Sequence record: ON470612
From: Escherichia phage vB_EcoS-640R1
DNA length: 53,425 nt
Direction: 5' to 3' (one strand)
Of this stretch, positions 12,072 to 28,842 are shown in pieces; the stretch's first letter is position 1; every line of letters starts with the position of its first letter. Under the pieces are notes generated by a model. The model saw nothing but the letters and a program-made list of their open reading frames with translations, ran no database searches and had not been told where the DNA came from. Both the position numbers and the translations under genes were made by a program.

Positions 12072-12862
12072 TTAACGTCCCCTGTGTTACCTTTCGTTTT
12101 ATCACGAGCAATAAGCTGGCTGGCAATAACCATCACCAGCGACAGCACCAGTAATATGGTTGCCAGCGCGTTAACTTCCGGCGATACGCCGACTTTGACC
12201 ATCGAATAAATTTTTAACGGCAGAATTTCATAACTTGGTCCGGTGACGAACGAAGAAACTACCACATCGTCCATCGACAGGGTAAAGCTTAACACCCAGC
12301 CCGCCGCCACCGCTGGAATTGCCAGTGGCAGAATGATTTTTCGCAGAATGGTAAATTCGCTGGCACCGAGATCTTTCGCCGCTTCCAGCATTCGCACGTC
12401 AAAACCTTTCAGGCGCGAATACACCGTCACCACCACAAATGGCAGGCAGAAGGTGATATGCGAGAACAGCAGCGACCAGAAGCCAAGCTGAATACCCAGC
12501 AGCATAAACAGCACCAGCAGCGAAATCGCCATCACGATATCTGGTGACATCATCACCACAAACAGCATTCCGCTAACGAACGGCTTACCACGAAAGCGAT
12601 AACGGTACAGCGCAACTGCCGTCAGTGAACCGATAAGCGTAGCAAACGTCGCCGAAAACACCGCCATTGTTAGTGAATGCTGCGCTGCCTGTAACAGGCT
12701 GTCGTTGTTCATCAGCAGGCTATACCATTTGGTGGTAAAACCCTGCCAGTTGATGCCAAAGCGCGAGCTGTTAAAGGAGTTCACAATCAAAATAATGATT
12801 GGGATATACAGGTACGCGTAGATAGCGGTCATAAAACCGCCGCGAAGCAGTCGACCGATCAT
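12068..12862 (-). CDS. potC: Spermidine/putrescine ABC transporter permease PotC
   Basis: 264-aa ORF MIGRLLRGGFMTAIYAYLYIPIIILIV...; ABC permease signature; start overlaps the stop of the reading frame that carries the potB 3' end. Confidence 0.92.
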   Translation of the reverse strand: MIGRLLRGGFMTAIYAYLYIPIIILIVNSFNSSRFGINWQGFTTKWYSLLMNNDSLLQAAQHSLTMAVFSATFATLIGSLTAVALYRYRFRGKPFVSGMLFVVMMSPDIVMAISLLVLFMLLGIQLGFWSLLFSHITFCLPFVVVTVYSRLKGFDVRMLEAAKDLGASEFTILRKIILPLAIPAVAAGWVLSFTLSMDDVVVSSFVTGPSYEILPLKIYSMVKVGVSPEVNALATILLVLSLVMVIASQLIARDKTKGNTGDVK

Positions 12863-17358: not shown

Positions 17359-17926
17359 TATCGCGCCCTCAACAATGAGTTTTGTGATGCGGTGCCTGGT
17401 GCCTCCAGGTGACGTTAACCAGTTAACAATTAACGCCGGATACAGAGAATCCACCCATAACACTGTTTTTGGTTTTAACTGTTCCGCGTGCGCTTAGCCG
17501 CATTCACCGCATCACAAAATTCACTTTAAAAAGGGCGGCAGAGCAGTCACGGAGTAAAACTGATACCGCCAAACGTCACCAGAAAATTGATAACAGAGGG
17601 CGTTGCAGTGGGGTTGTCACTTAAGCGTATGGTCAACCTGACAACCCGGTGTCCTCAACGGGGGAAGGAATAACCCCGCCATACTTACCGCCGCGCCATT
17701 TCGCGGATTGCCACAACCGGAAGCGCACGGTCGACGAAAATTTAACGACAGGCTATCTATGAACCAGCTACCTCGCCGTGCGCTTTCGCGTTATGGCCTG
17801 ACTTTTCAGGGAAATATCCTTTCAGTAAACTGTCAGTGCCGGATGCTCACCCGTGTCCGGCGCACGCACTCCACCTCACCCGTGGAGAACTCCTTAATTA
17901 CCAACCTTAGCTTCGTTGGTTATCTA

Positions 17927-23378: not shown

Positions 23379-23637
23379 ATACAGCGAACGCCATTGGTTT
23401 AGTTGGATATTTACTGTGCCGGACAAAAACGGTTTGCGGGGAAATCTTAGTTAAGTAGAATGACTGCGGGTGCTTGAGGCTATCTGTCTCAGGCATGAAC
23501 ACCAAAAGGCAGATAGAGAAAAGCCCCAGTTAACATTACGCGTCCTGCAAGACGCTTAACATTAATCTGAGGCTCAATCTATGAACGGCAAATCTAGGTT
23601 AGCCTCTTACGTGCCGAAAGGCAAGGAGAAGCAGGCT

Positions 23638-23793
23638 ATGAAGCAGCAAAAGGCGATGTTAATCGCCCTGATCGTCATCTGTTTAACCGTCATTGTGACG
23701 GCACTGGTAACGAGGAAAGACCTCTGCGAGGTACGAATCCGAACCGGCCAGACGGAGGTCGCTGTCTTCACAGCTTACGAACCTGAGGAGTAA
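23638..23793 (+). CDS. hokD: Hok/Gef-family type I toxin (HokD/RelF-like)
   Basis: MKQQKAMLIALIVICLTVIVTALVTRKDLCEVRIRTGQTEVAVFTAYEPEE: single TM plus conserved Cys/Tyr periplasmic tail typical of Hok; in-frame upstream extension from 23581; terminator downstream. Confidence 0.85.
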   Translation: MKQQKAMLIALIVICLTVIVTALVTRKDLCEVRIRTGQTEVAVFTAYEPEE

Positions 23794-25299: not shown

Positions 25300-25680
25300 A
25301 TGACTGAACGCATAGAATTTGTTTTGCCTTACCCGCCGACGGTGAATACCTACTGGCGACGTCATGGCAATACGTATTTCATCTCGGAGGCCGGAAAGCG
25401 TTATCGCCGTGATGTGGCGCTAATTGTTCGCCAGCAGCGGCTGAAATTAAACCTGTCCGGAAGGCTGGCGATAAAGGTGATTGCAGAGCCACCGGATAAG
25501 CGTCGTCGCGACCTGGACAATATCCTGAAAGCACCGCTGGATGCGCTGACGCATGCGGGAGTGTTAATGGACGATGAGCAGTTTGATGAAATCAATATCG
25601 TTCGTGGTCAGCCAGTATCTGGTGGACGTCTGGGGGTGAAGATTTACCCCATAATGCATGAAGAGCAGGTCAAAAAATGA
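25300..25680 (+). CDS. rusA: Holliday junction resolvase RusA
   Basis: MTERIEFVLPYPPTVNTYWRRHG...DLDNILKAPLDALTHAGVLMDDEQ: RusA motifs; 126 aa. Confidence 0.9.
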   Translation: MTERIEFVLPYPPTVNTYWRRHGNTYFISEAGKRYRRDVALIVRQQRLKLNLSGRLAIKVIAEPPDKRRRDLDNILKAPLDALTHAGVLMDDEQFDEINIVRGQPVSGGRLGVKIYPIMHEEQVKK

Positions 25681-26498
25681 AACTGGAAGATTTACCGAAA
25701 TACTACTCCCCAAAATCCCCTGGCCTGACCGATGCATCGGCCTCAACGTCAAAAGATGCGCTGAGTATCACTGATGTGATGGCCGCGCAGGGCATGACAC
25801 AGAATCGGGCTGAGATGGGGTTTTCTGCGTTCCTGGGGAAAATGGGCATCAGTATGAATGACAGGGCGCGGGCAACAGAATTACTGGCAGATTATGCACT
25901 CAGTCGGTGCGATCGTGTTGCGGCGTTGAGAAAACTTCCGGCAGAAATAAAACCGTTAGTGATGCGCATTATGGCTTCGTACGCTTTTGAGGATTATGCC
26001 CGCAGCGCAGCGAGTAAAAAGCAGTGCCCTTGTTGCTATGGGGAAAAATTTATTGAAAGCGTAGTTTTTACAAACAAGGTCCAGTATCCGGATGGTAAGC
26101 CGCCGGTATGGGCAAAGTGTACGAAAGGTGTGTATTCGTCTTACTGGGAAGAATGGAAAAAAGTCAGGGAGGTGGTAAAAGTTGCCTGTCCGGAGTGTGG
26201 CGGAAAGGGTGAGGTTTCCACCGCCTGTAAGGATTGCCGTGGGCGTGGTGTCGCCATTCATCGTGAAGAGTCGGTAAAACGTGGTATGCCTGTTATCAGA
26301 GACTGCCAGCGTTGTGGTGGTCGTGGCTATGAAAGACTACCATCAACGGAGACATTTAATGCTATATGCGAGGTGACAAACCAGATAACACGCGCGTCAT
26401 GGGAAAAAACAGTTAAGAAATTCTATGATGCGCTGGTGACCCGGTTTGATATTGAAGAAGCATGGGCTGAGCGGCAGTTAAAAAAGGTAACTAGGTAA
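25677..26498 (+). CDS. Late-gene antiterminator Q-like protein
   Basis: 273-aa ORF directly upstream of a pR'-like promoter, with CPECGGKG...CKDCRGRG...CQRCGGRG zinc-binding motifs; start overlaps rusA stop. Confidence 0.75.
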   Translation: MKLEDLPKYYSPKSPGLTDASASTSKDALSITDVMAAQGMTQNRAEMGFSAFLGKMGISMNDRARATELLADYALSRCDRVAALRKLPAEIKPLVMRIMASYAFEDYARSAASKKQCPCCYGEKFIESVVFTNKVQYPDGKPPVWAKCTKGVYSSYWEEWKKVREVVKVACPECGGKGEVSTACKDCRGRGVAIHREESVKRGMPVIRDCQRCGGRGYERLPSTETFNAICEVTNQITRASWEKTVKKFYDALVTRFDIEEAWAERQLKKVTR

Positions 26499-26503
26499 CA
26501 AGG

Positions 26504-26540
26504 TTGATTTTTCCGGAATCTGTGGTAAATTCGTCATAAT
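26504..26540 (+). promoter_or_regulatory. Putative late promoter pR'
   Basis: TTGATT -35, 16-nt spacer, extended -10 TGgTAAATT (the lambda pR' -10 is TAAATT), directly after the Q stop. Confidence 0.5.
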
Positions 26541-26578
26541 AATGGGCTTTTTATGCCTGACGTTAGAAGAGTTTCTAC

Positions 26579-26603
26579 AACCCGCCGCCGAGCGGGTTTT
26601 TTA
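26579..26603 (+). terminator. tR'-like intrinsic terminator
   Basis: CCCGCCGCCGAGCGGG hairpin followed by TTTTTTATT. Confidence 0.6.
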
Positions 26604-26641
26604 TTGCGGAATTAATTACGGACCGTTATTATTCTACTCCC

Positions 26642-26717
26642 GGCCCTTTAGCTCAGTGGTGAGAGCGAGCGACTCATAATCGCCAGGTCGCTGGTTCAAA
26701 TCCAGCAAGGGCCACCA
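26642..26717 (+). tRNA. tRNA with CAU anticodon (Met/Ile2-type, ileZ-like phage tRNA)
   Basis: 76 nt cloverleaf: 7-bp acceptor GGCCCTT/AAGGGCC, D-arm GCTC-AGTGGTGA-GAGC, anticodon loop CTCATAA, T-arm GCTGG-TTCAAAT-CCAGC, 3' CCA. Confidence 0.85.
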
Positions 26718-26815
26718 TCACAAACCGCCATTAGCTTATCAGGAAGAGCAGACGACACGATAACAGGGTTGTTGGTGCGGGGGCGGGTCCCCGATGGCGG
26801 TCCATTATCGGTATT

Positions 26816-26895
26816 CAGCGTTGTTAGCTCAGCCGGGCAGAGCAATTGCCTTCTAAGCAGCTGTGGTTGCACTCCTGTTGTTTCTGGTGGTGATG
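26816..26895 (+). pseudogene. Degenerate tRNA-Arg(UCU)-like remnant
   Basis: TTAGCTCAG...AGAGCAA...CCTTCTAAG matches the 5' half of argU-type tRNA, but the T-arm and acceptor 3' strand are not foldable. Confidence 0.4.
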
Positions 26896-27054
26896 GTGGA
26901 CTTCAGCAGCCGGATAATGTCGGTGCTGTCTGATGGTGTTTTGGTGGCGGGTGTGTGGTTGTTGCTTTCCCGTTGCTGAAAAAGAAAGCATCAGGCGATT
27001 AGCAGGGTATCAGTTACCCGTTGAAATTTTTAAATACCTCACAATTCCACAGCT

Positions 27055-27258
27055 TGATGATTGTCTGGCTGCCGGAGAATTTGTTAAAAATTACATCGCA
27101 TGGTGAATCCCCCTCAGCGGCGGGGCATCTGGCAAAGTGTATGATCCAGAGAACATGCAAATTCAGTAGACAGGCTGAATTTACCGGGAGGCCCCTGGCA
27201 CCATGCGACAGACAGAAATTAGGCTATACTTCAGCCCCTCTCCGGAGGGGCTTTTCTG
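27055..27258 (+). ncRNA. Candidate structured RNA element, copy 1, ends in intrinsic terminator
   Basis: Shares conserved blocks with copy 2 (TTGTCTGGC..TTTGTTAAAAA..CGCATGGTGAATCCCCCT; GAATT(T/C)ACCGGGAGGC..GGCACCATGC; AGCCCCTCTCCGGAGGGGCT + T-run); alternative pairings of GCATGGTGAAT with ATT(T/C)ACC or CACCATG. Confidence 0.4.
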
Positions 27259-27445
27259 TGCAGGATGTGTCACAGTTTCCTGAATTCTGAGTACTGTCCT
27301 GTTACTCAGGGTGCTATATTTTCTGACGTGATGAAAGTCTGCCGGAAGGCGGAACGTATCGGAAATGACCCAGTAGAGAAAACGTTGACTCAGATACCGA
27401 TGCTGAGTTACCGGGAAACCGGCATCACATGACCGCTATCCTTCC

Positions 27446-27475
27446 AGGCTCGCTCCGGCGGGCCTTTTTACTGCA
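27446..27475 (+). terminator. Intrinsic terminator between the two RNA-like elements
   Basis: AGGCTCGC-TCCG-GCGGGCCT hairpin (one G-U) followed by TTTTTA. Confidence 0.45.
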
Positions 27476-27525
27476 GAAAACAGTTTTCCCGTAAAATGCC
27501 ACGTTGCTCATAATTCAGGCTGGCG

Positions 27526-27720
27526 ATTATTGTCTGGCCGGCGGGAAGTTTGTTAAAAAATTTCGCATGGTGAATCCCCCTGTGCGGAGGGGTAATCAGC
27601 GAGTAGGTATATGGGATAATCGCGGATTCAGGTGCTGGTACTGAATTCACCGGGAGGCACCCGGCACCATGCAATGGCACATAGCGCCACTCTCCAGCCC
27701 CTCTCCGGAGGGGCTGTTTA
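27526..27720 (+). ncRNA. Candidate structured RNA element, copy 2, ends in terminator-like hairpin
   Basis: Same conserved 5', 3' and hairpin blocks as copy 1, with a divergent central segment. Confidence 0.4.
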
Positions 27721-27750
27721 TATTGATTTTGTCAGATGTGAGTAAACTCC

Positions 27751-28086
27751 TTATGGACTTTGTTGTTTTAGTCCATAAGGACATATTTGCAGAATGCAAC
27801 GGTTATTAAAGCATTCATTCAATACGTTATCTGTATTTGTAGGGCATTCCTGGCTGTTTTTGATTAAATTCCAGAATGTTTTATTGAATGGTACTACGTT
27901 GTAAATGGTTACAGGTAGCACTTTGTTATTGAGCATGATACCTGTGTGAGTCAGTGTAAATATACTTTCAGGAGGTAAGAAAGCATCCGATTGATACCAG
28001 ATTATTAATTTTACTTTACTCCATATGACTGAAAAAGATATTCCGCATGATGGCTGGATAACTGTATCAATTACAATCCACTTCAT
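27751..28086 (-). CDS. Hypothetical 111-aa protein in AT-rich moron island (the slot where Stx phages carry stxAB)
   Basis: Track ORF with AAGGAAG Shine-Dalgarno 4 nt before ATG; surrounded by markedly AT-rich DNA (27720-28330); no recognisable family. Confidence 0.5.
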
Positions 28087-28346
28087 TTAGCTTCCTTGTT
28101 TATGCCTTGCTGGTGATGTTCTGAAAAGTATAAATGATATTTTTGAATATAAACCATAGAGCAGAATTATTTTTCTGATGTTGTTTATTGTTTATTTAAA
28201 TGCAGGGTGGTTTATATCTCGTCTTGTAGTTTATCCATGCATATCTGCTTGATGATCAGGTTTCTATTTAAGGTATGGTTTTGTGTTTTTTCTGTGTTAC
28301 ATGTCTGGTATTTTAAAGAATTATTTTTCAGATGGTGGAAAGAACC

Positions 28347-28535
28347 ATGGCATTTAAACACTATGATGTTGTCAGGGCGGCGCCGCCGTCAGATCTTGCG
28401 GAAAAGCTGACACATAAACTGAAAGAGGGCTGGCAGCCGTTTGGTAGTCCGGTGGCCATAACCCCTTATACCCTGATGCAGGCGATTGCAGCAGAAGGTG
28501 ATGTGGTGGTCAGTGGTGCAACTGAGCCGGAGTGA
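28347..28535 (+). CDS. DUF1737-like small protein, commonly found just upstream of lambdoid lysis cassettes
   Basis: MAFKHYDVVRAAPPSDLAEKLTHKLKEGWQPFGSPVAITPYTLMQAIAAEGDVVVSG...; internal start of track ORF 28332..28535. Confidence 0.65.
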   Translation: MAFKHYDVVRAAPPSDLAEKLTHKLKEGWQPFGSPVAITPYTLMQAIAAEGDVVVSGATEPE

Positions 28536-28691
28536 TACTACGTCATCGTACTGGCCCGGCATTCCAGACCATAAAAGACGGTCTGGCAGTGGGACTAAAT
28601 GCACTGACGCTGACGGATATTACCAAAAATGCAACGTATGGCGTTGAGATAGAAAGTCTGGTGCTGGAGATAAATACACCGGCATCATCAT
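28532..28691 (+). CDS. Possible small ORF (53 aa, GTG start) below ORF-track cutoff
   Basis: Protein-like translation (...[37 protein letters not shown]) in a frame overlapping the preceding stop; weak RBS. Confidence 0.25.
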
Positions 28692-28842
28692 AAAAAGTGA
28701 GCCAGTCAAATGGAAGGTATCGTTAAACTCACCGGTAGTGTCAGTGGATCGTCTGAGACGCTTGCATGAGTTATCAGAGCCATCAGTAGTTAACTGGTGG
28801 CTTTTTTATTGTTGTCAGCTTCCGGATAACGGGAGACGGGGT

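Follow-up and report, generated by a model that had tools for sequence, protein, structure and literature searches.

Few bacterial small RNAs (sRNAs) are annotated as often as STnc100, which is curated in Rfam as family RF02076, described as a 'Gammaproteobacterial sRNA', with a gathering score of 47 bits. Strain EDL933 carries 11 STnc100 copies, one of which has been confirmed by Northern blotting. In EHEC, EcOnc05, EcOnc06, and EcOnc27 were positive by both Hfq-CRAC and Northern blotting; EcOnc27, also called sRNA103, is a copy downstream of stx2B that is crosslinked to Hfq, and its overexpression raises the transcript levels of fimZ and espA, the only effects reported for STnc100-type RNAs. 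Tree et al. described such RNAs in eight Sakai prophages, where they form one half of convergent sRNA dyads located between pR′ and the lysis genes. Further, PasD1 and PasD2 of EPEC were found by Hfq RIL-seq and are highly abundant on CsrA too, and according to a 2026 preprint they share a common ancestor with STnc100. Relatives are abundant Hfq-bound RNAs in uninduced lysogens.

The locus studied here lies in the window, that is, the whole 53,425-nt stretch of DNA that was analyzed. Its two outer units had been noticed from the sequence letters by an original prediction, which proposed duplicated phage sRNAs or a switch-like leader and recognized nothing that matched them. Scanning the whole window with Rfam 15 showed that RF02076 matches unit 1 at 27068–27261 (138 bits, E = 2e-30) and unit 2 at 27537–27725 (132.5 bits, E = 6e-29), in both cases over the full model (positions 1–206) and with scores to be compared with the 47 bits required. 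As a single covariance model matches each of them at an E-value of about 1e-29 to 1e-30, the similarity of the two units is far beyond chance. Their MFE and centroid folds reproduce the long-range closing helix, the internal hairpins, and the terminator of the family, and both are located in the moron slot of a lambdoid late region. Units 1 and 2 are canonical STnc100 members and, being copies of a known family, are therefore an ordinary case of an established element rather than a new RNA switch. The proposal of duplicated phage sRNAs was borne out by these full-length matches, while the covariance search that the original prediction suggested returned precisely what it had not recognized, a multi-copy prophage sRNA family. 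What was achieved is that a curated Rfam family was correctly recovered from raw sequence where the RefSeq annotation leaves it out, the units carrying no ncRNA annotation there.

Since a third, diverged unit lies between units 1 and 2, the locus constitutes a three-gene array, and we consider it highly probable that it is one of tandem paralogous STnc100-family sRNA genes in the moron slot of a lambdoid prophage, whose products would be Hfq-associated regulators acting in trans. Neither the tandem three-unit arrangement nor a promoter reading of the 5′ block of the units was found described in the literature searched, and these are incremental points. The window is a lambdoid E. coli prophage, and many complete genomes match the 1.5 kb around the array with 100% identity; one strain that carries this prophage is E. 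coli M217 (NZ_AP019189.1, 2776439–2777109). When an array was counted wherever at least 80% of the query was covered, the full array was present in 672 of 5,426 complete E. coli genomes (about 12%); it is a conserved three-gene arrangement with a middle copy under the Rfam threshold. The family as a whole is multi-copy in E. coli and occupies up to 12–16 places per genome. The outer units were spaced by 467–483 nt in arrays from E. albertii and about ten viral contigs, and directly adjacent unit pairs, 232 or 267 nt apart, were seen too. An 888-nt contig labelled Xanthomonas pisi, with STnc100 and AsxR scores equal to those of the Sakai Sp5 stx2-downstream region, looks like E. coli phage sequence contaminating that assembly; a MAG labelled Proteobacteria was listed alongside it.

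Based on the RefSeq annotation of one matching genome and on Pfam, the gene order is DUF968, RusA, Q, tRNA-Ile (CAT), a DUF3927 ORF, the units, a convergent iraM-like gene, holin, lysozyme, Rz, and iss, in agreement with the late-region moron slot in which the units had originally been placed. In detail, the antitermination protein Q gene (25677–26498, + strand; Pfam PF03589, E = 1e-54; RefSeq 'antitermination protein') is followed at 26504–26604 (+) by a putative pR′-like late promoter and the first terminator. The promoter-like sequence, TTGATT-16-TGgTAAATT at 26504–26531, comes right after the Q stop codon, and the strong terminator at 26579–26598 with its T-run would, together with pR′, give a leader of ~65 nt. 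A weak isrK-like match (14 bits) covers 26538–26602, and a −10-like CATAATAAT is found at the predicted pR′ start. The tRNA with anticodon CAT (26642–26717, +) was matched in the Rfam scan, was called Met by ARAGORN and Ile by RefSeq, and is probably the lysidine-modified ileZ type, as in the same slot of Sakai Sp4. The small DUF3927 ORF (26863–26979, +; Pfam PF13064) lies just upstream of unit 1, and the iraM-like gene (27751–28086, − strand; RefSeq 'anti-adapter protein IraM'), in which the Pfam scan gave no match, ends ~30 nt past unit 2. This gene takes the slot of the convergent AsxR/AgvB-type anti-sRNA of the Sakai prophages.

A direct-repeat search recovered four blocks shared by units 1 and 2, namely 27056–27090/27525–27559 (83% identity), 27096–27125/27563–27592 (90%), 27175–27206/27641–27672 (91%), and 27229–27255/27692–27718 (93%), and the alignment showed a divergent centre between them, so that the description of two ~200-nt units with conserved blocks around a divergent centre was accurate. 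The terminator scan located terminator-like hairpins at 27233–27252, 27446–27465, and 27695–27716. The first and the third of these are the GC hairpins with T-runs that had been predicted to end each unit, the T-run of unit 2 being interrupted (CTGTTTATATT); the second had also been predicted as a terminator between the units, correctly as to the hairpin, but it had been missed that this hairpin belongs to a third, diverged unit. For Hfq binding, the short or interrupted U-tails of units 1 and 2 are not ideal.

All three units are read from the plus strand and have the same layout. Unit 1 starts with a promoter-like block at 27061–27090, which consists of a putative −35 element TTGTCT (27061–27066), an 18-nt spacer, and a putative extended −10 element TGtTAAAAA (27082–27090). 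The sRNA body, delimited by the RF02076 match, the folds, and the terminator scan, spans 27098–27256; within it the closing helix P1 joins 27098–27105 with 27199–27206 around the internal hairpins, a single-stranded linker and putative seed follows at 27207–27232, and the terminator stem occupies 27233–27252 with a U-run to 27256. In unit 2, the corresponding promoter-like block lies at 27530–27559 (−35-like TTGTCT 27530–27535, 18-nt spacer, extended −10-like TGtTAAAAA 27551–27559), and the body, based on the RF02076 match and the folds, spans 27565–27720, with P1 at 27565–27572 and 27665–27672, the linker at 27673–27694, and the terminator stem at 27695–27716 followed by a U-rich tail. The middle unit at 27326–27470, which is identified by a sub-threshold RF02076 match, its fold, and a compensatory P1, is preceded by a putative extended −10 element TGcTATATT (27312–27320) and comprises P1 (ACGUGAUG at 27326–27333 with CAUCACAU at 27423–27430), a linker (27431–27445), and a terminator (27446–27465, U-run to 27470). 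The structured domain of the units is ~105 nt long and near-invariant, while the linker sequence is completely different among the three; among the homologues, near-identical cores carry swapped 3′ linker-terminator modules. The plan of the family is an invariant structured 5′ body with exchangeable 3′ linker-terminator modules.

Folding and covariation showed that the long-range helix P1 (GCAUGGUG/CACCAUGC) closes a conserved multi-helix junction. For unit 1, the MFE and centroid folds were concordant in giving the P1-closed junction (shuffle z = −2.6), and for unit 2 they were the same structure, again with the P1-closed junction (z = −3.2). When the Rfam-like structure was laid on 76 distinct homologues, a standard pair was found in 91.2% of the cells, and 14 pairs had changed on both sides. 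None of 500 column shuffles reached the observed pairing values, and the pairing fell to 37–51% when the 3′ partner was shifted by one to three columns. Covariation across homologues, the absence of which the original prediction had named among the outcomes that would refute it, is present. It is located in the local hairpin and the terminator. The local hairpin P4, formed by AAAUUCAG/CUGAAUUU in unit 1 and GGAUUCAG/CUGAAUUC in unit 2, is compensatory at six of its eight pairs. As the 5′ strand of P1 was held constant in the homologue search pattern, the evidence for P1 covariation comes from the middle units and from changes of its 3′ strand, which are wobble-only.

The middle unit was matched by RF02076 at 27297–27472 in a 2.4-kb search, with 30 bits (E = 4e-4) vs. 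the gathering score of 47 bits. It is nevertheless a diverged paralogue, as its architecture, the compensatory changes in its P1, and its position in the array are in common with the family: its fold has the architecture of units 1 and 2, and its P1 is preserved although it differs from theirs, with three compensatory pair changes in the copy of the window and four in a second variant, which occupies the same slot in other arrays with 86% identity. The exchanges are G-C to A-U, C-G to U-A, A-U to G-C, and G-C to A-U. The extended −10-like TGcTATATT is unchanged in the alignment of both variants.

From 5′ to 3′, units 1 and 2 consist of TTGTCT, the 18-nt spacer, TGtTAAAAA, about 6–8 nt, and GCAUGGUG, the 5′ strand of P1. 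When the regions upstream of homologues were compared (45 distinct ones), conservation was confined to the −35-like and TTTGTTAAAA parts, with a freely varying spacer. Further, the 5′ block aligns with the PasD promoter region, in which the counterparts are TTGACT and TAAAAA, and the PasD RNA start, as estimated from RNA-seq, is the G of GCATGG (GCAUGG). From this hexamer-only conservation and the PasD start, the 5′ block and Rfam positions 1–29 were read as promoter DNA, most likely a sigma-70 promoter with an extended −10 element; the first ~29 positions of the RF02076 model would then look like promoter DNA rather than RNA.

The RNAs would be ~145–160 nt long if started at GCAUGG and ~200 nt if started upstream. 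In Sakai, Northern sizes are ~222 nt for EcOnc05 and ~235/247 nt for EcOnc27, which exceed the distance from GCAUGG to the terminator by 65–77 nt, compared with an excess of only 14–28 nt for RNAs with PasD-type promoters; overall, the Northern sizes range over ~177–247 nt and the excess over 14–77 nt. Because of the larger Sakai sizes, a longer RNA containing the 5′ block is possible. A conserved CAYAAT(TC) motif was observed ~52–57 nt upstream of GCATGG in the STnc100-type units, at 27040–27045 and 27509–27514 in the window, where it has neither a −35 element nor a TG extension, and at 795–800 and ~418–423 in two extracted loci outside the window. If transcription could also start further upstream, this motif might serve as the −10 element, in line with the longer Sakai Northern sizes. 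A 15-nt AT-rich inverted repeat (27019–27033/27084–27098, 87% complementary) surrounds the promoter region of unit 1 and overlaps its −10-like element; unit 2 has no counterpart of it.

The units here have the helices of the STnc100 relatives and, like them, occur in lambdoid prophages between pR′ and the lysis genes. EcOnc05 and EcOnc06 were probed within the central sequence type that is seen in unit 2, and unit 2 itself contains the EcOnc05 probe target. The Sakai Sp4 copy with this target matches unit 2 at every position between the RNA start and the end of the terminator stem, and only the U-tails differ; EcOnc05 was detected by Northern blotting in Sakai. The linker of unit 1 resembles the Northern probe target of EcOnc27. 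However, the Sakai dyads pair such RNAs with a convergent AsxR/AgvB-type anti-sRNA, whereas here three head-to-tail units with a diverged middle one are followed by the iraM-like gene.

PasD1 and PasD2 (EPEC E2348/69; EcOnc13 in EHEC) are more distant. They have the 5′ core GCAUGGUGAAUCC...GGAGGGG and CGGGAGGC in common with the units, the same general layout of structured body, seed, and terminator, and loci with a DUF3927 gene immediately upstream and a holin gene downstream, as at this array. In contrast, their consensus −35 element is TTGACT with no TG extension, while the units have TTGTCT and TG; they carry another 3′ module with the seed UGUGAG, which does not occur in the linkers here; and their copies are reported to be dispersed, while the units are tandem. 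As only the 5′ core aligns and the 3′ module and seed differ, the units do not belong to PasD. Despite the common 5′ core, the PasD1 and PasD2 loci of E2348/69 score below the gathering score of RF02076. With these loci and the middle unit both under the threshold, RF02076 as built misses part of a wider family.

AsxR and AgvB (RF02703 and RF02702) are similar to the units in being prophage-encoded and Hfq-bound, in occupying the same moron slot, and in combining a conserved scaffold with a variable seed, but they are unrelated in sequence, only 51–60 nt long, and transcribed convergently. Neither was found in the window at the gathering score, nor in 26400–28800 at E-values up to 10. The lambda 6S, StxS, and IsrK-type leaders are, like the units, short terminated late-region transcripts downstream of Q; they start at pR′, however, whereas the units lie ~500 nt downstream of the pR′-like promoter and apparently have promoters of their own. 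The analogue of lambda 6S, StxS, or IsrK at this locus would be the putative ~65-nt leader of 26504–26604. Tandemly duplicated adjacent sRNA genes that are partly alike and partly different are also known from the paralogues OmrA and OmrB; by contrast, it is here the structured 5′ body that is conserved, whereas the putative seed varies together with the terminator module, which is exchanged within the family.

As to function, each unit most likely is transcribed from its own sigma-70 extended −10 promoter and ends at its own intrinsic terminator. In lytic growth, RNA polymerase that starts at pR′ and is modified by Q would have to pass all four terminators before it reaches the lysis genes. 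The 3′ region of PasD contains both the seed UGUGAG, just 5′ of the terminator, and the ends of the RIL-seq chimeras. The Hfq cluster of EcOnc27 maps to the linker and terminator once an offset of ~137 nt between genome versions, which was revealed by the AsxR coordinates in the Sakai Hfq-CRAC data, is corrected; before this correction, the cluster appeared to lie on the 5′ block, an assignment that was rejected. If the units behave like PasD1/2 and EcOnc27, Hfq binding and target contacts should fall on the 3′ linker and terminator of each unit, and the variable linker would be the likely seed. The PasD seed position, the EcOnc27 Hfq cluster, and the module exchange together suggest that the RNAs most likely are trans-acting, Hfq-associated base-pairing sRNAs that share a stable body and differ in their seeds, so each unit may have a different target set. 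A search for complementarity to the linkers in the window gave longest matches of 9–12 nt, which for the unit 1 linker, where the null was computed, are within the range of the shuffles. The only 12-mer, at 12821, was rejected as a target because it is antisense to the gene there.

A more speculative variant, to which we give only a small chance, places the function in the 5′ multi-helix junction, for instance as a docking platform for CsrA onto which the 3′ seed-terminator cassettes have been swapped. The structured 5′ domain has GGA motifs at hairpin loops, and PasD2 is among the most abundant CsrA-bound RNAs. If this were true, the array would bring one effector to three target sets and represent a natural programmable guide system.

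Somewhat less probable still, and in our judgement improbable, is that the units are mainly cis signals, that is, a terminator stack which silences the lysis genes without Q and of which the RNAs are by-products. Four plus-strand terminators, at 26579, 27233, 27446, and 27695, indeed lie between Q and the holin gene. Such a role is compatible with the sRNA reading. Taken as the main function, however, it leaves unexplained the near-invariant structured domain, the promoter-like elements in all three units, and the compensatory changes, and it contrasts with the abundance and Hfq binding of the relatives in uninduced lysogens.

The trans-acting sRNA reading is also to be weighed against the switch-like leader of the original prediction, in which the 5′ segment GCATGGTGAAT pairs with either ATTYACC or CACCATG and the single T/C difference between the copies preserves the former pairing. 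As a cis-acting switch or attenuator, GCAUGGUGAAU would alternate between AUUYACC and CACCAUG and thereby govern the terminator and late-gene read-through. Both complementarities do exist in units 1 and 2, with seven of seven pairs possible, and the units sit in the late operon with the lysis genes downstream. Only the CACCATG helix, which is P1, was supported. The alternative helix GGUGAAU/AUUYACC showed no covariation, and in 32 of the 76 homologues its A10 pair is broken, since the partner position follows the local hairpin P4 in its covariation; the T/C difference makes up half of an A-U/G-C exchange that is compensatory in this hairpin, so that the claim of a preserved alternative pairing failed. 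In the middle paralogues, P1 is rescued by compensation, while the alternative helix is reduced to four of seven pairs. Folding of both copies, which had been proposed as a check for alternative helices, yielded the P1-closed junction only: forcing the alternative helix cost +11.5 and +13.8 kcal/mol, its pair probability was 0, and it was absent from the predicted fold even of a nascent RNA lacking the 3′ strand of P1. Further, neither P1 nor the alternative helix overlaps the terminator, and therefore neither could control it. With an alternative helix that is not maintained, is energetically excluded, and does not reach the terminator, a riboswitch or attenuator is very unlikely.

Still harder to sustain is the reading of the units as the remnant or pseudogene of a minus-strand protein-coding gene. 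PGAP places a partial 'hypothetical protein' pseudo-CDS over unit 2 (~27555–27680, −) and a 132-aa hypothetical protein antisense to PasD1 in E2348/69 (2001–2399 (−) of the extracted locus), and the minus-strand core is free of stops in some frame in 60 of the 76 homologues, which is uninformative by itself. However, Pfam scans of the ORFs overlapping the units (27021–27290 on the plus strand and 27468–27680 on the minus strand) were empty, and the core lengths of the homologues fall into all three mod-3 classes (38, 12, and 9), therefore no reading frame is conserved, consistent with the original statement that no ORF explains the conservation. The substitutions are compensatory for RNA helices, and sense-strand RNAs of the relatives have been detected experimentally. 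The PGAP calls antisense to unit 2 and PasD1, at neither of which an ncRNA is annotated, look spurious. Finally, an IS-element fragment or MITE-type repeat, which like the pseudogene had been named beforehand as what might undo the sRNA reading, can practically be dismissed even though the family is multi-copy in E. coli, since the repeat search found only the direct-repeat blocks, the terminator palindromes, and the short AT-rich inverted repeat, and neither terminal inverted repeats nor target-site duplications, and since the copies always occur in the same lambdoid-prophage position and match the sRNA covariance model.

Two more known RNAs were matched over their full Rfam length elsewhere in the window: the sok antitoxin RNA at 23468–23643 (+), which adjoins hokD, and DicF at 17533–17584 (−).
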